DNA of 64,000 nt from a virus. Under the pieces are notes generated by a model. It saw only the letters and a program-made list of their open reading frames with translations, made no database searches and was not told the DNA's origin. Within the stretch, counting starts at the first letter, position 1; each line of letters opens with the position of its first letter. The translations under genes were made by a program, and so were the position numbers. The stretch lies in the IMG/VR virus record IMGVR_UViG_3300018476_000013, positions 1 to 64,000 of that record; one strand, 5' to 3'. Below, piece by piece: positions 12,010 to 31,847 of this stretch.

Positions 12010-12029
12010 CCCCAGACGGAGATTTGATT

Positions 12030-13055
12030 ATGGCTTCGGTACTTAGACAACTCCAGGCAGAGTGGAACGCGTTGGTTCCTGCAGCCCAGGCCCGTGGCAT
12101 CCGCCGCGTTAAGCTCCTGGGTCAGGGGGACATCCTGCGGGCACCCCTGGAGACCATTGCATATCGTCGCGCCAAGCTTGAATGGCTGCGGTCGTTGCTC
12201 GGTGGTTCCAGCCTGGCTGGCCTTGATGGTTTGCAGTTCGGTGTGGAGATCGAGGTGATCCTGCCCCGTGGCATGTCCCGCCGGGAAGCAGCAGCCAAGA
12301 TCACGGCGGCAGGTGTTGAATGCCACGAGGAATTGTATGGTCACACCACCCCCGCTGGTAAGTGGAAAGTGGTTACGGATGGTTCCTTGGGCTATGAACA
12401 AGGTGCAGAATTCGTGTCCCCTCCCCTTCGGGGTGAGGATGGGTTCAGGCAGATGCGGATTGTCTGTGATGCCCTGACGGCCATGAATGCCAGGATCACG
12501 GCCAAGTGTGGTTTCCATGTTCATGTGGATGTCGGCACTGAGCCGGTGGATTTTTTCAAGAACCTGGTTCGTTTGTATGCTTCGGCAGAAACCACGATCG
12601 ACAAGTTCATGCCGGCATCCCGCCGGGGTTCGGTCAACCCGTTCTGCCAGCCCACCCGGATCAACGATGCAGCCCTGACTGCAGCCACCAACATTCAGCA
12701 GGTGGCCACGGCCATTGGCCAGGACAACACCCGGGCACATGCCCGTAGTTCTCGTCGGTATCGCAAACTGAACCTGCAGTGCTTCTTCGTTTATGGCACG
12801 GTGGAATTCCGCCAGCATGGTGGAACATGTGACGCCCAGAAGGCAGCCAACTGGGTCCGCTTGTGCCTGCGCATGGTGCTGACGGCACGGGCCGGAGAAA
12901 AGACTGTGACCACGGTCGATGAATTGCTGGAGACGGTGGGTGCCGATGAAGCTGAGAAGGCATACTTCAGCAGCCGGGTGAACTACTTCAACCGGGCGGA
13001 AAATTTCGATCGGTTGTCGGATGCCAACTTCATTAATCGTCGGAGGCCAGTGTAA
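12030..13055 (+). CDS. Putative amidoligase (Amidoligase_2, COOH-NH2 ligase)
   Basis: FGVEIE, WKVVTDGSL, EFVSPPL, CGFHVHV, RYRKLN, TVEFRQH. Confidence 0.85.
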   Translation: MASVLRQLQAEWNALVPAAQARGIRRVKLLGQGDILRAPLETIAYRRAKLEWLRSLLGGSSLAGLDGLQFGVEIEVILPRGMSRREAAAKITAAGVECHEELYGHTTPAGKWKVVTDGSLGYEQGAEFVSPPLRGEDGFRQMRIVCDALTAMNARITAKCGFHVHVDVGTEPVDFFKNLVRLYASAETTIDKFMPASRRGSVNPFCQPTRINDAALTAATNIQQVATAIGQDNTRAHARSSRRYRKLNLQCFFVYGTVEFRQHGGTCDAQKAANWVRLCLRMVLTARAGEKTVTTVDELLETVGADEAEKAYFSSRVNYFNRAENFDRLSDANFINRRRPV

Positions 13056-13657
13056 TGGCTAAGATCAAAGTACCACGCCAACGCATTCAGAAGGGTCGGA
13101 CGAAAGTCCGGCCCTACAAGGCCCTGATGTGGTCGTATGGCTCGAACTGCAACATTGAACAGATGAAGCGCCGTTGTCCCAACGCGACACCAGTCGACAA
13201 ATTGCTGATCACGGGCACTTCCCTGGTTTTCCGGGGTGTGGCAGATGTGGTCATCAAGCCAGGTGTTGCAGCACCTGGGGCGTTGTGGAGGATCACTCGT
13301 GAGTGCGAGCAGTCCCTCGATTACTATGAGGGGATCGGCACCGGGCTTTATATGAAAAGGTTCTTCACGATCAACATCGATGGTCGGCCGGAAGAAGTTC
13401 TGTTCTACCAGATGAAAATGTCGGATGGTGTGATGCCGCCAACTGAAGCGTATGTTGAAACCATCGCGCGGGGTTACCACGATTTCGATATCGACCTGGA
13501 CTACCTGAACCGCGCACTAATGGAGTCGTGGAATGACAAGGAGGTTACACCCGTACTGAAGGAGCGCCATGTCAAAAGAGGCAAGCCGAAACTGGCAAGG
13601 GAAGTGAATGAATTTTTCTTGACAGAAGATGACTTACGTGAAGCGGGGGCTGTATGA
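13055..13657 (+). CDS. Gamma-glutamylcyclotransferase (GGCT) family protein
   Basis: YGSNCNIEQMKRRCP, LDYYEG; coupled to the amidoligase. Confidence 0.85.
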   Translation: MAKIKVPRQRIQKGRTKVRPYKALMWSYGSNCNIEQMKRRCPNATPVDKLLITGTSLVFRGVADVVIKPGVAAPGALWRITRECEQSLDYYEGIGTGLYMKRFFTINIDGRPEEVLFYQMKMSDGVMPPTEAYVETIARGYHDFDIDLDYLNRALMESWNDKEVTPVLKERHVKRGKPKLAREVNEFFLTEDDLREAGAV

Positions 13658-18696: not shown

Positions 18697-18987
18697 ATGA
18701 TGTTCAAGATCAATGATGTGGTTGGATTTATCGACCAAGAAGCTTCCGCCCCGGTTCTCGCCGTCGCCGGTGATCAAGTCCTCGTGGCCTTTGGTCCCCG
18801 GTGGATCAATTGCTCGGACGAACCCAGCTTCATTGGCTGTGCCAACACCACCAACCCCAAGCTGGGGGATCTGGTGGAAGTCTATGGTGTCCCGGGACAT
18901 CATGAAATCCTCGGCCGTCGCGATGGCGATGTGCTGGTGGATACCGGCCCGACCTGGTACGACACTGAAACCATGTGCTTTATGTAA
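18697..18987 (+). CDS. Hypothetical protein with internal duplication
   Basis: AAGGAG RBS; two similar halves. Confidence 0.6.
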   Translation: MMFKINDVVGFIDQEASAPVLAVAGDQVLVAFGPRWINCSDEPSFIGCANTTNPKLGDLVEVYGVPGHHEILGRRDGDVLVDTGPTWYDTETMCFM

Positions 18988-19463
18988 TGACCATGCGGTG
19001 GCGTCAAATCCCAGGATCTGACTATGAAGTTTCTGATTACGGTCAGGTTCGAAAAGGAAAAAACCTTTGTCGGGAATATATCCTCCCAACTGGTTATCGA
19101 TCTGTCTGGGTCAAGATCAATGGTCAGTGGGCACAAAAATACGTTCATAGATTGGTGCTCGAAATCTTTGTCGGTCCTTGTCCTCCCGGACAAGAATGCC
19201 GGCATCGGGATGGGGACAATGGGAATAATTATTGGAAGAATTTGAAGTGGGGGACACCAAAGGAAAATGGTCAAGACAAGATCAAACATGGGACAGCCCA
19301 AAATGGAGAACTCGTCCCCCAATCAAAACTGACGTGGGTGCAGGTCCGGTCAATCCGGAAAGCCCAAGGTCCTCGTGGACTCGGTAAAAAATTAGCAGAG
19401 CAACATGGTGTTTCTTCTGCAACGATATCGCTCATTCGAGCAAACAAAGGATGGAGAGAATAA
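18987..19463 (+). CDS. NUMOD4/HNH endonuclease
   Basis: WRQIPGSDYEVSDYGQVR; VHRLVLEIFVG...CRHRDGDNGNNYWKNLKWGT..EN. Confidence 0.9.
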   Translation: MTMRWRQIPGSDYEVSDYGQVRKGKNLCREYILPTGYRSVWVKINGQWAQKYVHRLVLEIFVGPCPPGQECRHRDGDNGNNYWKNLKWGTPKENGQDKIKHGTAQNGELVPQSKLTWVQVRSIRKAQGPRGLGKKLAEQHGVSSATISLIRANKGWRE

Positions 19464-21577: not shown

Positions 21578-21772
21578 ATGGCAGCAGTAAAAAAGAAAAG
21601 GAAACGGGGTGGTGCTAGCATGCCCTGCCCCGAGTGTGGGTCTCATTCTCATGTGATCATCACCAAGAGGATAGATGACAAAGTTGAGCGGCAGCGGGAA
21701 TGCCTGGGTCGGCGGCCTCACAAATTTCACACTTACGAAGAGGTCAGTTATGAAGCTGTATCTAGCAGCTAG
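21578..21772 (+). CDS. NrdR-N-terminal-like Zn-ribbon protein
   Basis: MPCPECGS..VI.T....ERQREC....KFHTYE. Confidence 0.65.
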   Translation: MAAVKKKRKRGGASMPCPECGSHSHVIITKRIDDKVERQRECLGRRPHKFHTYEEVSYEAVSSS

Positions 21773-22154
21773 GTTCGCCAGGCGGGAAAAATTAGTAACC
21801 GACGCCATCCCATTCCTAGAAGAAGATGGTCACAAGATCACTTCACGATGGTTATGGGAAGAGGATGATGGAGGAGAAGGCGCGGCCCGGATCTGCCTGC
21901 AGGACATTGACAGGTCTGAGGCCGTGGTTCTTTTCACTGATCCAGTGGGGTCAAAGAATGCAGGTGGCGGTCGTTGGTTTGAAGCTGGATATGCTTACGC
22001 CAACAATCGCCGCCTGTTCATTGTGGGTGAACAAGAGGCCGTGTTCACTTACCTGCCCCTGATCACTGTTTGCCAGGACGTCGACCACTTACGGCGTGAA
22101 CTCGACAACTACAATACCGACCTCATTAAACATCTGGCGCGTCCACTCAGCTGA
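21750..22154 (+). CDS. Nucleoside 2-deoxyribosyltransferase/nucleotide hydrolase-like protein
   Basis: KLYLAARF, CLQDIDRSEAVV, GGRWFEAGYAYA. Confidence 0.8.
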   Translation: MKLYLAARFARREKLVTDAIPFLEEDGHKITSRWLWEEDDGGEGAARICLQDIDRSEAVVLFTDPVGSKNAGGGRWFEAGYAYANNRRLFIVGEQEAVFTYLPLITVCQDVDHLRRELDNYNTDLIKHLARPLS

Positions 22155-22517
22155 GGATTTCCAGGGCTCACGGTCAAGCGGGGGTGGAGTGATCACCCGC
22201 TTGATGCCCCTGGAGACAATGGACTTGGCGCATTCATTGCACGGAAACATCGTCACTGCTAATGTGCTGCCCTCTAGATCGAAGTGGGCATTGTCCAAGG
22301 CATTGCGTTCAGCGTGCTGGGTCATGGCGTACTTGGTATTCTTATCCAGCAACCGCTCAGGGCTGTCTTCTATGCCAGGCGGAAATCCATTGTAGCCGAT
22401 GGTGATGTTCCGGCGGTCTTTGCCGACAATGACTGCACCCACTCGCGTGGACGGGTCCTTGCTCCACACAGCTACATGATGGGCCAAAACAAAATATCGT
22501 TGATCCCAGTCGGTCAT
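22089..22517 (-). CDS. dCMP deaminase
   Basis: SKDPSTRVGAVI, GYNGFP, HAERNAL, PCNECAK. Confidence 0.92.
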   Translation of the reverse strand: MTDWDQRYFVLAHHVAVWSKDPSTRVGAVIVGKDRRNITIGYNGFPPGIEDSPERLLDKNTKYAMTQHAERNALDNAHFDLEGSTLAVTMFPCNECAKSIVSRGIKRVITPPPLDREPWKSSAEWTRQMFNEVGIVVVEFTP

Positions 22518-22690
22518 CAAACAAATCCCTTTTCTTCCGCCAGCCATTCAGGCATGGTGAAGGTCCCATCTTTGTTGTCCTCGACCTGGGACTTGGGCAC
22601 CCATTCCGTTTTGATCCCATCGAAAAGACGATACGCTTTTTCCGTTTCGCCTCGGAGCTCTGCCGCTATGTCGATAAGCTTTTCGGCCAT
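22517..22690 (-). CDS. Small conserved phage protein
   Basis: ETEKAY..DG...WVPKSQVE...MPEWLAEEKG. Confidence 0.6.
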   Translation of the reverse strand: MAEKLIDIAAELRGETEKAYRLFDGIKTEWVPKSQVEDNKDGTFTMPEWLAEEKGFV

Positions 22691-23058
22691 CACGCTACCA
22701 GATCCGAAAGGTCCGGGGCGGTCCAACCCATGGGCTTGACTACATCATGAGCCGATCCCCGCTTCGAGTCCGAACCATCGGCCTTGGCCTTGACTTTCTT
22801 CATGTTGGCTTCGTGAACCCGCTTCCATGCTTCATCAAAGTCAAAGCCGTGCAGGTACGCTGTGCCCAGGGCGACATAGACCAGATCGACCAAAGCATCG
22901 AGCTTGTCCTCTAATGGATACTCACAATATTCGGTCAGCTCCTCGGTCATGAATTTCAATCGGAAGGATGCCAGGTCATCCGGCAATTGCCGAGGGCCGT
23001 CAGTGTAGGCCAATCCGAATTTCTCGTGGAAATCTTTGATGTCAGAATAGAAGCTCAT
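22690..23058 (-). CDS. MazG-like / PRA-PH family NTP pyrophosphohydrolase
   Basis: EELTEY, DALVDLVYVALG, VHEANMKK, VVKP.GW.APDL. Confidence 0.88.
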   Translation of the reverse strand: MSFYSDIKDFHEKFGLAYTDGPRQLPDDLASFRLKFMTEELTEYCEYPLEDKLDALVDLVYVALGTAYLHGFDFDEAWKRVHEANMKKVKAKADGSDSKRGSAHDVVKPMGWTAPDLSDLVA

Positions 23059-24918: not shown

Positions 24919-25176
24919 ATGGACGTAGTAAAACTGACGGAAGAACGAGGTCAAGTCCATGGGGACTTTACCGACGTATCGGAGATCGCCCAAAGCTTAA
25001 AGGCCGTTGTCCGTAATGGCAAGTCATTCAATCAATTGACGAGGGTGCAGGTTGAAGGCCTCGACATGATCCTGCACAAGATCGCCCGGATCGTTTCGGG
25101 CAATGCCAACCACCATGATCATTGGGATGACGTCGCCGGGTATGCTCACATCGTATCGAAGAGGATCACCAAGTAA
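24919..25176 (+). CDS. DUF6378-like protein
   Basis: ERGQVHGDF...KIARIVSGN...DHWDDVAGYA. Confidence 0.75.
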   Translation: MDVVKLTEERGQVHGDFTDVSEIAQSLKAVVRNGKSFNQLTRVQVEGLDMILHKIARIVSGNANHHDHWDDVAGYAHIVSKRITK

Positions 25177-26543
25177 TGTGTGGCTGGGTAGCACAAGCTG
25201 AAGTTGAAAACGATGAGCACTTCGCCGAAGCCATTCGGAGGATCAGCCATCGCGGCACTCGAGTGACCATCAAGGAAACAAACGGCAGCATCCTTGCTCA
25301 CTCCCGTTTGCCGATTGTCGGGCTGTCAGAAAAATACGACCAGCCCGTCGAGACGGATGACTGGCTGATTGCATTCTCCGGGGAGGTCCTGGACTTCAGG
25401 GAGGAAGACCCCGCTGCCGAATGTGATTTGCCTCTCGTTGTCGAGGGTTGGGAGCGGTATAAGTCCAAAGCCCTCAGGGGCCGGGATGGGTTCTGGAATA
25501 TCATCGCCATCGATAAAACAGATGGAACGCTCCACATTACATGCGATTACCTGGGACAGAAGCCAGCCTATTACCGGCAGGATGTTCTGGCTGCCGCTTC
25601 CGAACCGGATGCATTACTGCCCCTCGGGCCGGTGACATTCGATGAAGTGTACCTGGCAGCGGTGATCAAGTGGGGATACTGCCCGGAGATCGAGCGGACC
25701 CCTTACAATGAGATCAAGAAAGTCCGGCCGGGGGAGCATATCCAACTGGATGATCTTGGGACATTCGGCCAAGGACAAATCGTCGATCAATTGGTGCCCC
25801 GGCCAGGTGACCTGCGGAAGGAAATAGAACTGGCCGTCCGCCGGCGGGTAATGGCATCAGATGTGCCGGTGGCTTGCTTGTTGTCGGGTGGATTGGACAG
25901 CTCAATCGTTTATACCTTGGCCTCGTGCTATGGCCAGGTCAAGCCATATTACGTCGACCTCGGGGACAATGACATAGAAGAACGAATGGCCGTTGGTGCT
26001 GTCGCCGGCAAGGCCAAGGTCATGGAGGTCAACGGTTCTTCACTTGACATCCCGGTGATGGAGCAACTGGACTACATGCAAGAGCCCATCGACCTGGGTT
26101 CGTTGGTGCCACAGATCGCTTTGGCCCGTGTCATCCCTGAGAATGTTTGCCTGACGGGCGATGGTGCTGATGAAGTGTTCGGGGGTTATGGCAGGGCATA
26201 TCGTTATGACAGCCAGGGCTCGGATGTATTCCATGAATTGCCGGCGTGGCATCTGCCGCGGCTTGATCGGGTGATGATGAGGCACCTGATTGAAGTACGC
26301 AGCCCATTCTTGTCCCGCCGGGTGGTCGAGATTGGATTGTCCTTGCCCAGGGAATTGAGGACCGGCAAGCGGATACTCCGGGAAATCTTCCGGGACATCC
26401 TGCCTAAGAGCATTGCCGATCGGGCCAAGAAGCCATTGCGGATGCTGGGCATCAATGAAGCCCATCGCATTCATATGGTCAACGAGTTCAAACGGCGTCA
26501 TTACATCCGCAATGAAATGGATGTCGAGGAGATGAGTCGATGA
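25176..26543 (+). CDS. Asparagine synthase B-like amidotransferase/amide ligase
   Basis: N-terminal MCG, HRG, HSRL; PP-loop SGGLDSS; GDGADEVFGGY; EVRSPFL. Confidence 0.9.
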   Translation: MCGWVAQAEVENDEHFAEAIRRISHRGTRVTIKETNGSILAHSRLPIVGLSEKYDQPVETDDWLIAFSGEVLDFREEDPAAECDLPLVVEGWERYKSKALRGRDGFWNIIAIDKTDGTLHITCDYLGQKPAYYRQDVLAAASEPDALLPLGPVTFDEVYLAAVIKWGYCPEIERTPYNEIKKVRPGEHIQLDDLGTFGQGQIVDQLVPRPGDLRKEIELAVRRRVMASDVPVACLLSGGLDSSIVYTLASCYGQVKPYYVDLGDNDIEERMAVGAVAGKAKVMEVNGSSLDIPVMEQLDYMQEPIDLGSLVPQIALARVIPENVCLTGDGADEVFGGYGRAYRYDSQGSDVFHELPAWHLPRLDRVMMRHLIEVRSPFLSRRVVEIGLSLPRELRTGKRILREIFRDILPKSIADRAKKPLRMLGINEAHRIHMVNEFKRRHYIRNEMDVEEMSR

Positions 26544-28045
26544 AGAAGCCAAAAGAAAAGCAATTGATTGCCGTGGGGATCACCTGCGGCATTGGTTCAT
26601 TGCTCGTGGGCGCCAAGGCCGCAGGGTTCAAGGTCGCGGGCAATGTGGAGTGGCGGAAATATTACCACCACCAGGACGAAACCGAGCGCAACACTTTCAC
26701 TGAGAATTTCCCTGGGGCGATCTTCCCCAACTCAGTGGAGCAGATGACGGAAGAAGAGTTCAGGAAGTTCAGCAACCCGGACATCGCTTTAGGCCATCCA
26801 GAATGCGGCAACTTCAGCGTGCTGAATGGCGCCCACAAGGACCGGCTCAACATGATGCTGGACCCTGCTGACATCCCGCTCTTCGTCGATCTGGTAGCCA
26901 AGCTGAAGCCCAGGTTCTTCGTGATGGACGACCTGCCCAAGTCCTTCATGGCGTACCCGATGGAAAAGTACGCAGAGAAATTGCCGGACTATGACCTGTA
27001 TCCGGAATGGATCAGCAACTGGGGCTACGGCAACGTCCAGAAGAACCGGAACCGGATGTTCATGCTGGGCGCGCTGCGGGCCGAGCGGTGGGCTTTCCGG
27101 CCGGGTGAGCAGGAACATACCCTGACCGTGGAAGATGTCATCGGTGACCTTGCTAAGCCATCTGTGAGGGGCAATATGCCCAATCATGACCCCCACGACC
27201 TGAAGTCCGTTTGTGCCAAGGCCCTGAACCTGGGTGAGTGGCGGAAACGGAATACCTGGGGCGAGGTCCAGAAGTACTTCGCCGACAAGGGCGGCGGGTT
27301 CACGCTGGAATATACCAGGGATGACGGCAAGCGGCTGAAGAGGATCGGCTTCCTCAAGGGCCATTGGGACGGGCCATCGCATGTGCTGACTGGTGGCAAT
27401 GCCATCCTGCACCACAAGCGCAATGAACCCTACACCATCCGGGAGCGGGCGCGCATTCAGGGCTTCCCTGATGACTTCGTCTTCTATGGTGCCAAGCTGA
27501 ACCCCAAGGGGGAATGGGAGCATGATGGTGACGGCACCATGGTCAAGCAGACCGGCAAGGCCATGCCAGTGCAGTTTGCTGAATATGTGTCCAAGCAGAT
27601 TGCTGCATTCATCAACAAGGAAGAGTTCGAGTCCAGTGGCCGCCGGGTGATCCCGCCCAATGAATACGTCGACCAGGCCAAGCAATGGTACTGCCAGAAT
27701 GTCGGCTATTCAGTGCAGAAGAAAGCATGTGGGGAATGCTGGCTCTTCAACAAATGCAGCATCAGGTCCGAGAAATACCAAATCGGTCCGCGCGCGCATA
27801 CCACAAAATCCGTTGTGGAAGAATGCCCCACAAATCAGCGAATTACGGGGGCTGTTTTAGGGGGAAATACTAGGACGCGTCAAGGGGGGCTCATGCCCTC
27901 TGCCAAAAAGCCTAATGAAATCAAGGTCCGTGAGGCCAAGAACACGGGAGGGACCAATAAAAAAACGCCCTCCCGAGATCCCCGAACTGGCCAGTCCAGG
28001 AAAACTGTCCATCAACCCATCGAAACCACCATTGAAGAGTTTTGA
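26540..28045 (+). CDS. Atypical DNA cytosine-C5 methyltransferase homologue (possible carboxymethyltransferase)
   Basis: Motif I CGIG, IV GHPECGNFS, VIII QKNRNR, IX RERARIQGFPDDF; VI is DDL and X is QTGKAM. Confidence 0.85.
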   Translation: MKKPKEKQLIAVGITCGIGSLLVGAKAAGFKVAGNVEWRKYYHHQDETERNTFTENFPGAIFPNSVEQMTEEEFRKFSNPDIALGHPECGNFSVLNGAHKDRLNMMLDPADIPLFVDLVAKLKPRFFVMDDLPKSFMAYPMEKYAEKLPDYDLYPEWISNWGYGNVQKNRNRMFMLGALRAERWAFRPGEQEHTLTVEDVIGDLAKPSVRGNMPNHDPHDLKSVCAKALNLGEWRKRNTWGEVQKYFADKGGGFTLEYTRDDGKRLKRIGFLKGHWDGPSHVLTGGNAILHHKRNEPYTIRERARIQGFPDDFVFYGAKLNPKGEWEHDGDGTMVKQTGKAMPVQFAEYVSKQIAAFINKEEFESSGRRVIPPNEYVDQAKQWYCQNVGYSVQKKACGECWLFNKCSIRSEKYQIGPRAHTTKSVVEECPTNQRITGAVLGGNTRTRQGGLMPSAKKPNEIKVREAKNTGGTNKKTPSRDPRTGQSRKTVHQPIETTIEEF

Positions 28046-28066
28046 TCCAGAAAAGGAGTTCTGAAA

Positions 28067-28963
28067 ATGCACGGCGAGAAAGTTCACATTGTCAAGGGGC
28101 AGACCCCCGCTGATTATCACTGCACCTGCAAATTCTGCCAGAAGGCCCTGGGGGAATTGTTGAAGCCTGATGGGACATATTACAGCCGGCTGGAGCGCCG
28201 GAAGTATTATGACCCCGCTGAGTCGGGCAAGAAGGAAGGGGCGCACATTGCCAAGACCCCGCTCCACATTGCCCGCTGGGCCATCCAGAACTATTCTAAA
28301 CCAGGTGACTGGGTTCTTGATCCGACCATCGGCGCAGGCACCACGGCCGTCGAGGCCATCACCCAAGGCCGCAACGTGGCCGGAATGGAAATCGAATTCG
28401 GCGAAGTGCTGAAGAAGAATATCCAGGCCGCACTGGTACTGGCCAATGGGTCGAAGCCCAAAGCCAAGATCGGCCATGGCGATGCCCGCAACATCAGTGC
28501 CTTCCTCGACAAGGCCAAAGTTGAGAAGGTGCAGTTGGTCATCAACAATCCACCCTACTCAGGCGATGCCTCGATGCCGTCGCCCTCCAAGGAAGGACGG
28601 GGTGCCGCTTACCGGGACAAGGAAACCTATTTTTTCTACGACAAGTCCCTGCCGAACTTGGCGTTCCTGAAAGAGGGCCAAGAGTATTGGGATGAGATGA
28701 CAAAAATCTACAAGGCATGTGCTGACCGACTTGAAGTCGGCGGTCACTTCGTCATCGGCATTAAGGACATGAGCAAGAAGAAGCAGCCTTATCTTCTGCA
28801 CAAGATGTTCTGTGAAATCCTGGAAGAGATGAAGTTAAAATTTGTTGGCACGGCGTTCCTGAACCATTACCCTCGAACCCTTCACTTGAACACGTGCGAG
28901 AAGTTTTATGGCTTCAAGCCGCCGTTCTTCCAGACCATCAACGTATTTAAGAAAGCAAAGTAA
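28067..28963 (+). CDS. N6-adenine/N4-cytosine methyltransferase
   Basis: VLDPTIGAGTT (motif I) preceding NNPPY (motif IV). Confidence 0.85.
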   Translation: MHGEKVHIVKGQTPADYHCTCKFCQKALGELLKPDGTYYSRLERRKYYDPAESGKKEGAHIAKTPLHIARWAIQNYSKPGDWVLDPTIGAGTTAVEAITQGRNVAGMEIEFGEVLKKNIQAALVLANGSKPKAKIGHGDARNISAFLDKAKVEKVQLVINNPPYSGDASMPSPSKEGRGAAYRDKETYFFYDKSLPNLAFLKEGQEYWDEMTKIYKACADRLEVGGHFVIGIKDMSKKKQPYLLHKMFCEILEEMKLKFVGTAFLNHYPRTLHLNTCEKFYGFKPPFFQTINVFKKAK

Positions 28964-30820: not shown

Positions 30821-31005
30821 CTGGTTACCCAAAAGGAGAATTCCCTGAGATCGTTTACCAAGGGGGTCAGACAGGTTGGTGTCTGACATCCCATAAGAGT
30901 TATGAGTTCGAAGACCACATGGAAGCAGTTATTGCTTTGTTGCCGGAAGGGCCGGTTAAAGAAAACCAGATCGAGTGGTTCAAAGAACTCAAGAGGCGGA
31001 AATGA
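30817..31005 (+). CDS. Hypothetical protein
   Basis: ATGA-coupled on both sides. Confidence 0.5.
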   Translation: MTGYPKGEFPEIVYQGGQTGWCLTSHKSYEFEDHMEAVIALLPEGPVKENQIEWFKELKRRK

Positions 31006-31847
31006 AATACCTCGGCGAATATCTGTCTTTCAAACCTGTTGCCAGATTGATCGAAGGCCAGATCAAGGAAGCACCCCCTGTCCGCACAGAACGCTGGCAG
31101 GGGGTGGCGCATAACCAGGACACGCGTGAACTGCTGAACGCCTCATTCATGGTGGATCTGCAGTGCATCGAGGATCTGGATCATTGGCGGAAGGACATCA
31201 AGACCAATCTGCCTTGGGCTGATGACCACTTCATGGAGCGGATCGGCGGCCAGCCATTGAACCCTGGTGTTCAGTGGGCGAACTGGCCGTGGTCCCGGTC
31301 AGCAGCCAACTTCAAGCAGGACAGGTTCAATCATACCTACATGGAAAGGCTCTGGCCCAAGTTTGCCCGCCGGACTGCTGATGGCCGGTTGCCGATGGGC
31401 AAGGGTGCAAGGAAGTATCCGCAGACAGACAACCGGCCAAAGCTGGGGGTCGGCTGGGCTTATGGGGACTTGCTGGATCTGGTGGAGTTGCTGGTCAAAG
31501 AACCCCACACTCGCCAGGGATGGATACCGCTGTTCTTCCCTGAAGATACGGGCATCGGGGATGGCGGCCGCAAGCCCTGCACCCTTGGCTATCAGATCAT
31601 TGTCCGTGATGGCAGAGCCCATATCTATTATCCCCTGCGGTCATGTGACTTCATCCGGCACTGGGCAGATGATTGCTACTTGGCTGTGCGCCTGTTGCTG
31701 TGGGTCATCGATGAATGCCGCAAGAGGTCGGAGTTCTGGAAGAACATCGCACCAGGCACTTATTCGATGCACATGACTTCTCTTCACATCTTTGAAACGG
31801 ATCTTAAGACCAATGAGCAAGCCGAGGCCACCGCAACAAGTATTTGA
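31002..31847 (+). CDS. Thymidylate-synthase-fold enzyme, likely dCMP (hydroxy)methylase
   Basis: TRQ, catalytic PC (RKPCT), RSCD..D, SLHIF. Confidence 0.85.
   Translation: MKYLGEYLSFKPVARLIEGQIKEAPPVRTERWQGVAHNQDTRELLNASFMVDLQCIEDLDHWRKDIKTNLPWADDHFMERIGGQPLNPGVQWANWPWSRSAANFKQDRFNHTYMERLWPKFARRTADGRLPMGKGARKYPQTDNRPKLGVGWAYGDLLDLVELLVKEPHTRQGWIPLFFPEDTGIGDGGRKPCTLGYQIIVRDGRAHIYYPLRSCDFIRHWADDCYLAVRLLLWVIDECRKRSEFWKNIAPGTYSMHMTSLHIFETDLKTNEQAEATATSI

Follow-up and report, generated by a model that had tools for sequence, protein, structure and literature searches.

A Phage Module with a C5-Methyltransferase-Fold Enzyme Bearing a Basic Motif X Residue, a dCMP-Type Thymidylate Synthase Homologue, and an AsnB-like Amidoligase: A Candidate Pathway for Cytosine Hypermodification

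Genes at the Locus

The window analyzed here is a stretch of 64,000 nucleotides from the IMG/VR record IMGVR_UViG_3300018476_000013, a soil phage sequence that is 78.3 kb in full. The genes of interest are listed below.

24919–25176, plus strand: DUF6378 small protein (PF19905, E 3e-8)
25176–26543, plus strand: AsnB-like glutamine-dependent amidoligase (GATase_6/7 and Asn_synthase, E 4e-38)
26540–28045, plus strand: C5-DNA-methyltransferase-fold enzyme, named MT5-K (PF00145, E 3.5e-19)
28067–28963, plus strand: N6_N4_Mtase-family amino-methyltransferase-like protein (E 3.9e-17)
30975–31847, plus strand: thymidylate-synthase-fold enzyme, named TS(D) (alternative ATG at 31002)
22690–23058, minus strand: MazG-like (PRA-PH) nucleotide pyrophosphohydrolase (family match)
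22089–22547, minus strand: dCMP deaminase (family match)

The first four open reading frames and the two overlapping junctions named in the original prediction are real, as judged from the reading frames, the family matches, and a direct reading of the sequence. The junction between the DUF6378 and AsnB-like genes reads TAATG at 25174–25178, with the ATG at 25176, and the DUF6378 protein is predicted to be translationally coupled to the AsnB-like gene. At the next junction, ATGA at 26540–26543, the stop codon of the AsnB-like gene overlaps the start codon of MT5-K. The N6_N4_Mtase-like protein contains motif I (DPTIGAGTT) and an NPPY motif. Among 46 related loci, DUF6378 fills the slot upstream of AsnB in 13, the N6_N4_Mtase-like gene lies 3′ of MT5-K in 18, and the dCMP deaminase adjoins the TS-like gene in 23. 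The MazG-like protein is a candidate for the dCTPase/dUTPase of the module. In many relatives, dUTPase_2 (PF08761) is encoded directly upstream of the MTase-like gene and fills this role.

Sequence and Fold of MT5-K

The nucleophile of MT5-K is Cys89 (26804–26806), found within GHPEC. The arginines of motif VIII (QKNRNR) and motif IX (RERARIQGFPDDF) are present, as had been anticipated. Asp130 (26927–26929) is located in MDDLP where canonical enzymes have ENV, and Lys340 (codon AAG, 27557–27559) is located in VKQTGKAMPV where canonical enzymes have GN(A/S)V. The predicted placement of Lys340 at the motif X Asn was borne out by alignment. The GKAMPV segment was aligned to GNAVPV of M.HaeIII using HMMER. 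In a MAFFT alignment, Lys340 shares its column with Arg350 of SpCmoX (vGRMVPP) and with the Arg in the CmoX from Streptomyces phage TurkishDelight (iGRAVPP). The CmoA/CmoX/CmoY system of Synechococcus phage S-B43 (Yang et al., Nat Commun 2025, PMC12783734; PDB 8YF3) represents the published form of the phage pairs of carboxymethyltransferase and amide ligase that the original prediction had mentioned. Arg350 of CmoX binds the carboxylate of Cx-SAM (PMC12783734). The same paper cites the N374K variant of M.MpeI, which is altered at the position of Lys340 and gains carboxymethyl transfer, in agreement with what had been stated.

In an alignment of MT5-K with 120 homologues, Lys340 is found in 120 of the 121 sequences. 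His86, Cys89, and Asp130 are each found in all 121, and position 88 is acidic, with Glu88 in 119. Because Lys340 is conserved across the homologues, its substitution is not due to chance. Among 150 cluster representatives, position 340 is Lys in most and Arg in ~13, and this interchange points to the binding of an anion. From these alignments, a basic residue (Lys or Arg) at motif X is taken to be a conserved property of the MT5-K family, which contains ~100 clusters at 50% identity. The family signature is H-P-x-C, D-(D/N)-L, and the basic motif X residue (Lys, sometimes Arg).

MT5-K was rejected as a canonical SAM-dependent DNA cytosine-5 methyltransferase. Where such enzymes have PC, ENV, and GN(A/S)V, it has EC, DDL, and GKAM, and at 41 bits its NCBIfam dcm score falls short of the cut-off of 100.65 bits. 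The rewiring of motifs IV and VI, in which His86 and Asp130 are invariant and position 88 is acidic, suggests that more than the choice of cofactor has changed. MT5-K has the C5-MTase fold and the motif IV Cys of CmoX (PF00145; AF2 model; invariant Cys89), but Lys340, while basic, is not the Arg that defines CmoX. The SPPC motif and the Glu of ENV are absent, with HPEC and MDDLP invariant throughout the family, which counts against the assignment of MT5-K as a CmoX. The search filter for CmoX in PMC12783734 (SPPC and R350) excludes the MT5-K family. CmoX is no nearer to MT5-K than are ordinary MTases when compared using Foldseek and HMMER. Judged by sequence, the MT5-K and CmoX families are different.

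The AF2 model of MT5-K (pLDDT 84) exhibits a C5-MTase fold that includes a target-recognition domain, and it matches HaeIII, HhaI, and 8YF3. A C-terminal Cys4 cluster, C385-X11-C397-X2-C400-X5-C406 (27692–27757), is invariant, and the tail is disordered from approximately residue 422. The ribose-binding residues Glu37 and Trp38 and the GxG loop are conserved in the family, which is compatible with retained binding of a SAM-like cofactor.

TS(D) and the Pyrimidine-Pool Genes

Asp233 of TS(D) occupies the position of Asn177 in the E. coli enzyme and specifies dCMP. The position of Asp169 is likewise still Asp (Asp225), evidence in favor of a folate-dependent enzyme and against a 5-hydroxylase. 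Both residues are invariant in every TS(D) member. The nucleophile is Cys202, and Arg199 is invariant at the Leu143 position. According to the residue rules for TS homologues (PMC13326640 and PMC8670742), TS(D) possesses the Asp177 and Asp169 of a dCMP hydroxymethylase, but position 143 is Arg and not acidic. Since the proven hydroxymethylases have Asp or Glu at this position, the product of TS(D) could be 5-methyl or other. The best solved relatives are the HY126 dCMP hydroxylase, MilA, and the T4 dCMP hydroxymethylase, all of which are cytosine-specific. Four relatives also encode ThyX, and therefore TS(D) is not the dTMP synthase in those phages.

An Asp177-type TS, PRA-PH, and dCMP deaminase are the top Pfam associations in experimentally selected cytosine-modified phage contigs (PMC8670742). 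An Asp177-type TS that is accompanied by an NTP pyrophosphatase and a dCMP deaminase is the hallmark of cytosine replacement before replication. Such replacement would occupy C5, and the context is unfit for a carboxymethyltransferase that acts on cytosine. No dNMP kinase of the thymidylate-kinase family (PF02223) was found above the cut-off in 11 near-complete genomes, and there is no P-loop kinase ORF within the window. On this basis complete replacement of dC, as in a T4-type module, is putative. The module pyrophosphatases may be plain dUTPases.

The AsnB-like Amidoligase

The AsnB-like protein consists of an N-terminal Ntn glutaminase with Cys2 and an adenylating domain with the PP-loop SGGLDS. 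The conserved residues are Cys1, R49, E76, D98, the PP-loop, D351, E352, R387, K429, and K449. The glutaminase Cys, PP-loop, and adenylation residues are intact by sequence comparison, and the family-specific changes are E348 to D, D384 to H, and N74 to V/S. As with CmoY, an Asn_synthase PP-loop adenylating domain is encoded beside the MTase-like gene.

A survey of gene neighborhoods upheld the expected association of Lys-type homologues with AsnB in part. The AsnB-like gene is present in 41 of 64 MTase-like loci, and four essentially complete genomes that belong to the MT5-K family lack it. It is accessory and dispensable to the MT/TS(D) core. In a quick IQ-TREE analysis, the AsnB-like proteins linked to MT5-K homologues form their own very divergent clade (SH-aLRT 100) on a long branch, whereas the glutaminase-type ligases linked to CmoX are in another clade that groups with E. 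coli AsnB. Membership of the AsnB-like protein in the CmoX-linked ligase clusters was ruled out, as the two clades are separate and are not sisters.

Gene Linkage and the Survey for CmoA

The MTase-like gene adjoins TS(D) in 59 of the 64 loci, at MTase identities of 26–69%, and the other five are all cut by the end of a contig. Gene order is shuffled among loci, and TS(D) sometimes separates the MTase gene from the AsnB gene. In the series dUTPase_2-MT-TS(D), the stop codon of one gene often overlaps the start codon of the next. Most loci of the MTase-like gene also have an NTP pyrophosphatase and a dCMP deaminase. Part of the linkage to TS(D) may reflect shared ancestry of the replication module (Serratia phage Serbin). 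In phages that carry the same TS(D) without the MT, the same slot holds a different Cys-containing protein, probably TS-fold, that is absent from all MT-bearing loci. This mutual exclusion suggests alternative enzymes for a second step.

The original prediction had noted that no CmoA-like Cx-SAM synthase was recognizable in the window, and none is recognizable in the whole 78.3-kb record. Using TIGR00740, for which TurkishDelight gp125 served as the positive control (E 2.6e-25), CmoA was detected in none of the 53 records of related phages, a set in which 18 are at least 90% complete. This result also counts against classification of MT5-K as a CmoX. CmoA is present in 75 of 80 true CmoX loci, and TS(D) or MazG in 0 of the 80. 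There is no TS-like gene in the genomes of S-B43 and TurkishDelight.

These results bear on a reading in which the module is an analogue of CmoX/CmoY. Plain cytosine would be carboxymethylated at C5 with Cx-SAM made by the CmoA of the host, and the AsnB-like enzyme would use ammonia from glutamine to make 5-carbamoylmethylcytosine. The TS-like enzyme, pyrophosphatase, and deaminase would then serve ordinary nucleotide metabolism or partial replacement. The reading is consistent with the alignment of Lys340 with CmoX Arg350 and M.MpeI Asn374, the interchange of Lys and Arg, the retained ribose-binding Glu and GxG loop, and the order and overlap of the AsnB-like and MTase-like genes, which match S-B43. 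Ligases with a glutaminase domain adjoin CmoX, for example TurkishDelight gp124 and in 14 IMG/VR loci, and SpCmoX is active in E. coli on host Cx-SAM alone (PMC12783734). The reading stays a rival to the pathway proposed below, though a somewhat less likely one. Even phages of Erwinia, Dickeya, Yersinia, and Pseudomonas encode CmoA homologues, yet none appears in the related records, and C5 would be blocked by the action of the Asp177-type TS, an obligate partner. The non-sister ligase clade, the four genomes that lack the AsnB-like gene, and the Foldseek and HMMER comparisons also argue against it. The headline of the original prediction, a carboxymethyltransferase coupled to amidation by AsnB, is sustained in part, by the Lys at the CmoX Arg site, the S-B43-like gene order, and the intact AsnB residues, but not by the CmoA survey, the linkage to TS(D), or the ligase, which is dispensable and unrelated to those of CmoX. 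The evidence agrees better with its subsidiary suggestion of a possibly new cofactor.

Proposed Pathway

As the most likely reading, we tentatively propose a two-stage modification in which cytosine would be converted to a 5-hydroxymethyl-type base before replication, and the MTase-fold enzyme would then generate an anionic, probably carboxylate, derivative to be amidated by the AsnB-like enzyme. By the rules of the families involved, the NTP pyrophosphatase and dCMP deaminase would reshape the pyrimidine pool, and the folate-dependent Asp177-type TS(D) would convert dCMP to a 5-substituted dCMP, most likely 5-hydroxymethyl-dCMP, that takes the place of dC in phage DNA. After replication, MT5-K would flip the modified cytosine out and Cys89 would attack C6. 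The 5-substituent would be exchanged or extended via an exocyclic-methylene intermediate, with no transfer of a methyl group to a free C5. The product would bear an anionic group held by the invariant motif X Lys/Arg. The most plausible such group is a carboxylate, contributed by an amino acid (for example, glycine) that has been added to the base. The glutamine-dependent AsnB-like enzyme, here and in approximately two thirds of relatives, would adenylate this carboxylate and then amidate it. The NPPY methyltransferase may contribute a further methyl group. Cofactor-free C5-MTases reportedly substitute 5hmC in vitro, in work by Liutkeviciute, Klimasauskas and colleagues with ordinary MTases. 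We know of no natural enzyme of the kind proposed for MT5-K.

The two-stage proposal is supported by the adjacency of TS(D), its Asp177-type residues and cytosine-specific relatives, the ThyX of four relatives, the CmoA survey, the rewired motifs, the Lys/Arg interchange, the alternative protein of the MT-less phages, and the intact AsnB residues. The points against it include the retained Glu37, Trp38, and GxG loop, which fits retained binding of a SAM-like cofactor, and the M.MpeI experiment, in which Lys at this exact position is sufficient for the use of Cx-SAM. The negative kinase searches, the Arg at position 143 of TS(D), the possible dUTPase nature of the pyrophosphatases, and the possible shared ancestry behind the TS(D) linkage also weigh against it.

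An improbable alternative is that MT5-K is a back-up enzyme for cytosines that escape replacement before replication. With SAM, or with a one-carbon donor such as formaldehyde or methylene-tetrahydrofolate, it would turn them into the 5-methyl or 5-hydroxymethyl base that is present in the rest of the DNA, and the AsnB-like enzyme would act on something else. The tight linkage to TS(D) and the pyrophosphatase, the lack of a detected phage dNMP kinase, the occurrence of the core module without the AsnB-like gene, and the DNA C5-MTase fold with its target-recognition domain are in accord with this role. It leaves unexplained the basic residue in place of a near-universal Asn and the family-wide rewiring of motifs IV and VI, and the AsnB-like gene overlaps the MTase-like start here and, in other phages, lies interspersed among the MT and TS(D) genes.

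It is very improbable that the AsnB-like enzyme adenylates the hydroxyl of 5hmC to form an activated ester. MT5-K would bind this AMP ester, its adenosine filling the former SAM pocket and its phosphate contacting Lys340, attack of Cys89 at C6 would expel AMP, and ammonia from the glutaminase would yield 5-aminomethylcytosine, which the NPPY methyltransferase could N-methylate. This scheme is pure inference. It jointly covers the glutaminase domain, PP-loop, Glu37/Trp38, basic residue, and neighboring amino-methyltransferase, but it requires adenylation of an alcohol, for which we know of no example in the Asn_synthase family, and there are complete genomes in which the MT/TS(D) core dispenses with the AsnB-like gene.

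Direct carboxylation, the reverse of the known MTase-catalyzed decarboxylation of 5-carboxycytosine, with Lys340 holding CO2 or the carboxylate and the AsnB-like enzyme pulling the equilibrium via 5-carboxamidocytosine, would need no CmoA and would employ the basic residue beside C5 and an enzyme that requires a carboxylate, but it is thermodynamically uphill, has no precedent to our knowledge, accounts for neither the TS(D) linkage nor the members that lack AsnB, and is extremely improbable.

Comparison with Known Systems

The module is distinct from CmoA/CmoX/CmoY and, on present sequence evidence, probably makes a modified cytosine that is new to description. Like MT5-K, the CmoX of S-B43 is a phage enzyme of C5-MTase fold in which the motif X Asn has given way to a basic residue. 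The gene immediately upstream, in the overlapping arrangement cmoY-cmoX, codes for an ATP-dependent amide ligase of the AsnB family. The presumed purpose of both systems is the shielding of phage DNA from restriction. The differences are Arg, SPPC, and ENV in CmoX versus Lys, HPEC, and DDL in MT5-K; CmoA in 75/80 versus 0/53; and an Asp177-type TS in 0/80 versus its obligate presence. The ligase in the window also differs from the S-B43 system in its glutaminase domain and its separate, very divergent clade. M.MpeI N374K has the same Asn-to-Lys change at motif X, but it is an engineered single substitution in a canonical CpG methyltransferase, whereas in MT5-K the Lys is accompanied by changes to motifs I, IV, and VI throughout the family, and the gene context is different.

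In T4-type replacement, the dCTPase gp56, the dCMP hydroxymethylase gp42, and dCMP deaminase precede post-replicative decoration by glucosylation. Another such decorating enzyme is the 5hmC carbamoyltransferase (PMC8670742). These systems and the window both cluster an Asp177 TS homologue, an all-alpha NTP pyrophosphatase, and a dCMP deaminase with a decorator that acts on DNA. The decorator is a glycosyl- or carbamoyltransferase in the T4-type systems and a C5-MTase-fold protein, with or without an amidoligase, here. The present module also differs in the dNMP kinase, for which none was found in the genomes searched, and in the Arg of TS(D) at the Leu143 position.

Thymidine hypermodification, as reported by Lee et al. 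in 2018 and 2022, is said to proceed via 5-hmdU, 5-HMUDK, and aGPT-Pplase to N-alpha-glycinylthymidine and alpha-glutamylthymidine. Those pathways resemble the proposed one in leading from a pre-replicative hydroxymethylpyrimidine to amino-acid-type adducts on DNA. The hydroxyl group is phosphorylated in the thymidine pathways, whereas no such kinase is found here and the proposed activation would be covalent catalysis by the Cys of the MTase-fold enzyme.

Gene Organization

The phage record in IMG/VR is 78.3 kb long with an estimated completeness of 92%, and the window covers 64 kb of it. The phage was found repeatedly in soil metagenomes of many studies, and no RNA dataset is among the sequencing runs listed as containing it. 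The four predicted open reading frames, DUF6378 through N6_N4_Mtase-like, are present at the positions listed below, and the predicted junctions, TAATG at 25174–25178 and ATGA at 26540–26543, were read directly from the sequence.

Features of the modification region in the window
22089–22547, dCMP deaminase
22690–23058, PRA-PH
24919–25176, DUF6378
25176–26543 (+), AsnB-like, glutamine-dependent amidoligase
26540–28045 (+), C5-MTase homologue (MT5-K)
28067–28963, N6_N4_Mtase-like
30975–31847 (+), thymidylate synthase (TS)-like enzyme

An HNH_3/NUMOD4 homing-endonuclease-like ORF is located among the early genes at 18975–19463. At 12024–13657, an Amidoligase_2 (PF12224) gene is translationally coupled to an AIG2/gamma-glutamyl-cyclotransferase-like gene. 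This pair was found in 3 of 20 related phage records and was rejected as a core part; it could provide a further amide-forming step or be unrelated.

Loci of the family to which MT5-K belongs, denoted the Lys/Arg family, were obtained by an alignment-based scan, a single-protein query having given none. Neighborhoods of Arg-type and Asn-type representatives were taken from IMG/VR loci only. Across the family, the MTase-like, TS-like, and AsnB-like genes occur in varying order, with the TS-like gene sometimes located between the other two. The core in the more divergent members consists of dUTPase_2 (PF08761), MTase-like, and TS-like genes whose stops overlap starts.

Active Site and Fold of MT5-K

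The codon for Lys340 was read directly as AAG at 27557–27559. The predicted position of this residue at the motif X Asn was confirmed with HMMER, which sets GKAMPV against GNAVPV of M.HaeIII. In a MAFFT alignment, Lys340 falls on Arg350 of SpCmoX, the CmoX of phage S-B43, and on the matching Arg of TurkishDelight CmoX. The AlphaFold2 model of MT5-K (mean pLDDT 84, pTM 0.80) has a complete DNA C5-MTase fold, including the target-recognition domain. The top structural matches for this model are HaeIII, MET1, and HhaI, and CmoX (8YF3) appears only in 17th place. The ribose-binding Glu37 and Trp38 and the GxG loop are retained in the Lys/Arg family, and the adenine-stacking Phe is replaced by Thr. 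The predicted complex of MT5-K (residues 1–420) with the TS-like enzyme gave a score of 0.00, which counts neither way.

An invariant Cys4 cluster, C-X11-C-X2-C-X5-C, is found C-terminal to the MTase domain (27692–27757). Its spacing is reminiscent of the 4Fe-4S loop in EndoIII/MutY-type glycosylases; zinc binding could equally be possible.

The Lys/Arg Family

The family is common, with about 100 clusters at 50% identity from soil phages in many independent studies; phmmer, run exhaustively against 1.84 billion cluster representatives, returned 101 clusters at E ≤ 1e-30. His86, Cys89, Asp130, and Lys340 are essentially invariant in 120 homologues of 50–96% identity. Across the best 150 cluster representatives, motif IV reads H-(P/T/D)-x-C and motif VI reads D-(D/N)-L. 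The motif X residue in this set is mostly Lys, with Arg in about 13 and Asn, Gln, or Ala only in the most distant members. Judged from these alignments, the position is conserved for a basic side chain, suggesting that an anion is bound there.

In at least nine representatives (P0077, P0243, P0246, P0247, P0252, P0267, P0276, P0297, and P0300) and one locus (L050:6171–7120), the protein is interrupted precisely at residue 88/89. Several of these members contain HINT/intein and Vsr-like endonuclease Pfam domains, which indicates that inteins were inserted at the active site, beside the catalytic Cys. The exact position of the split fits Cys89 as a critical site.

A tblastn search of GenBank phages gave no closely related MTase-like gene, the best match being 27% identical. 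A scan of GTDB genomes provided three hits only: two phage contigs binned into MAGs, one of which has an insertion at Cys89, and one gene fragment. No host assignment came from these three hits. Two MTase-like gene fragments (residues 5–94 and 108–214, about 60% identity) were observed at L051:10001–10638. The 2.78-Mb contig that contains them belongs to an uncultured alphaproteobacterial MAG, and their surroundings show no other phage genes. The two fragments may be a prophage remnant and are the only host hint found. In the papers searched, neither the Lys/Arg family nor its signature is described, nor is its link to a TS homologue specific for dCMP.

The TS-like Partner and the Cytosine Pool

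The best matches of the TS-like profile are the HY126 dCMP hydroxylase (9IQU/9IQC), the CMP hydroxymethylase MilA, an L. casei TS entry, and the T4 dCMP hydroxymethylase. In every TS-like member, Asp replaces Asn177 of the E. coli enzyme, Asp169 is retained, and Leu143 is replaced by an invariant Arg. By published rules (PMC13326640; PMC8670742), Asp177 denotes a dCMP substrate, Asn at 169 denotes 5-hydroxylation, and position 143 is hydrophobic for methyl and Asp or Glu for hydroxymethyl products. Because Asp169 is retained, the TS-like enzyme was rejected as a flavin-dependent 5-hydroxy-dCMP synthase. Since Arg at 143 is neither hydrophobic nor Asp/Glu, the product must be deduced from the family rules and is probably hydroxymethyl.

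The top MetaGPA associations with cytosine-modified phage DNA are Thymidylat_synt of the Asp177 type, dCMP deaminase, and PRA-PH (PMC8670742), and the window holds exactly this trio. The accessible part of the MetaGPA supplementary tables does not list Asn_synthase or DNA_methylase and does not give GATase_7 as enriched. ThyX is encoded alongside the TS-like enzyme in four relatives (L039:5842–6534, L038:5942–6646, L014:9857–10573, and L043:565–1215). An ATP-dependent DNA ligase, likewise tied to modified DNA by MetaGPA, is encoded by several ThyX-bearing phages of the family. A dNMP kinase of the thymidylate-kinase type was sought in 11 near-complete genomes without success, and the window contains no P-loop kinase ORF; both results count against complete dC replacement.

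Beside the dCMP deaminase, positions 21675–22154 give a weak match to nucleoside 2-deoxyribosyltransferase (E 0.0024) that was seen in two related loci only. MilB, the partner of MilA, is a member of this superfamily.

The TS-like family extends beyond the MTase-like one, with 495 matches in IMG/VR, and an MTase-like gene accompanies only 12 of the best 80. Loci lacking this gene include relatives of Serratia phage Serbin. In 40 of the 68 MTase-less loci from the best 80, an ORF of ~270 amino acids is found directly upstream of the TS-like gene (L126:4465–5277 and 39 other IMG/VR loci; CPT_Serbin_051, L047:5003–5812, in Serbin); it is absent from every MTase-bearing locus. The ORF is conserved and has no Pfam match; hhalign aligns its invariant Cys and its YRSTE motif, at low probability, to the TS Cys and RSCD. 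A low-confidence model matches almost only TS-superfamily structures in Foldseek (E > 0.07), a weak indication that the protein may be a very divergent TS fold. The distribution is compatible with the ~270-aa and MTase-like proteins being alternative C6-attacking second-step enzymes for the same TS-like partner.

The AsnB-like Enzyme

The residues Cys1, Arg49, Glu76, Asp98, Asp351, Glu352, Arg387, Lys429, and Lys449 and the PP-loop are kept in the AsnB-like enzyme. Relative to E. coli AsnB, Glu348 is changed to Asp and Asp384 to His, both invariantly within the family, and the glutaminase oxyanion-hole Asn74 is lost (Ser here, Val in most). These three changes may mark an altered acyl substrate. 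A Gat-QueC/7-deazaguanine assignment, suggested by a weak QueC PHROG match, was rejected because the Asn_synthase match is far stronger; no DpdA-type gene is among the annotated ORFs.

In a quick maximum-likelihood tree, the 32 AsnB-like proteins linked to Lys/Arg-family genes form one clade with a support of 100 and a long branch. The 15 glutaminase-type ligases linked to CmoX form a separate clade, grouping with E. coli AsnB and generic homologues. The AsnB-like enzyme was therefore rejected as an orthologue of the latter, and the two ligase sets were evidently recruited independently. An AsnB-like gene is found in 41 of 64 loci, and ten members, four of them with records at least 90% complete, lack it throughout their records. 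The AsnB-like gene is accessory.

Proposed Chemistry

The obligate TS-like partner should occupy C5 before replication, which favors a post-replicative conversion. In the reading that we tentatively prefer, a 5-hydroxymethyl-type cytosine in DNA would be converted by the MTase-fold enzyme through covalent catalysis at C6. The Lys or Arg at motif X would grip an anion, which is probably a carboxylate on the moiety being added; where the AsnB-like enzyme occurs, it would amidate this group. A 5hmC substrate would mean new enzymology and a new base.

It is doubtful, though conceivable, that the MTase-fold enzyme is a natural 5-hydroxymethylcytosine substitutase that no longer carries out SAM group transfer. 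Attack of Cys89 on C6 of 5hmC in DNA would be followed by loss of the hydroxyl; the exocyclic methylene would then take up a nucleophile with a carboxylate, for example an amino acid bound by Lys340, to give an adduct for amidation by the AsnB-like enzyme. If true, both the enzymatic route and the class of cytosine hypermodification would be new, and the latter would be common in soil phages.

A CmoX-like route using host Cx-SAM offers the only experimental precedent for the Lys and would extend 5-carboxymethyl-type cytosines far beyond CmoA-bearing phages. The original prediction found no CmoA-like synthase in the window, and CmoA is likewise present in 0 of 53 records of the family, 18 of which are at least 90% complete. 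Among GenBank phages, 67 records contain a CmoA homologue, among them records for Erwinia, Dickeya, Yersinia, and Pseudomonas phages; as a rule, therefore, a phage that uses Cx-SAM appears to encode its own synthase, and we regard the host route as somewhat less likely than the preferred reading. A patching role for the MTase-fold enzyme is improbable, an AMP-ester route to 5-aminomethylcytosine still more so, and direct carboxylation is scarcely credible.

Phage DNA hypermodifications decide which restriction, CRISPR, and glycosylase defenses work, and they are a source of enzymes for DNA labeling and sequencing chemistry. The Lys/Arg family supplies a concrete, cloneable four-gene set.

Comparison with CmoA/CmoX/CmoY

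To our knowledge, the only natural non-methylation use of the C5-MTase scaffold is CmoX, described in December 2025. Pairing this scaffold with an AsnB-type ligase to hypermodify phage cytosine is an idea known from the same date; there is a real chance that the Lys/Arg family represents new chemistry. Work on Synechococcus phage S-B43 showed that Cx-SAM is produced by CmoA, that CmoX, whose motif X Asn is replaced by Arg350, forms 5-carboxymethylcytosine, and that glycine is joined to this base by the AsnB homologue CmoY (Yang et al., Nat Commun 2025, PMC12783734). The same study reports a second, uncharacterized ligase cluster with a glutaminase domain and defines CmoX bioinformatically by SPPC and R350, so the present family was excluded from its set.

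The S-B43 locus was recovered as a control in the order cmoA-cmoY-cmoX. In the control Streptomyces phage TurkishDelight, CmoX contains SPPC, ENV, and GRAVPP and is accompanied by a glutaminase-type AsnB and a CmoA (TIGR00740, E 2.6e-25). Neither genome has a TS-like gene. Among 80 true CmoX loci, CmoA is present in 75, a ligase in 30 (versus an AsnB-like gene in 41/64 here), dCMP deaminase in 1, and a TS-like or MazG-like gene in none. In the Lys/Arg-family loci, by contrast, dCMP deaminase is common, as is a MazG-like or dUTPase_2 gene, and the TS-like gene is found in 59 of 64, the other 5 being cut by the contig end. Gene context cleanly separates the two groups.

The CmoX/CmoY-like reading thus stands as a resemblance and fails as membership: unlike CmoX, the Lys/Arg family lacks SPPC, ENV, and CmoA, and its ligase comes from another clade. 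The Lys/Arg family shows that the switch from Asn to a basic residue seen in CmoX has arisen twice, here in a separate genomic setting where its partner is a dCMP-modifying TS homologue and not a Cx-SAM synthase.
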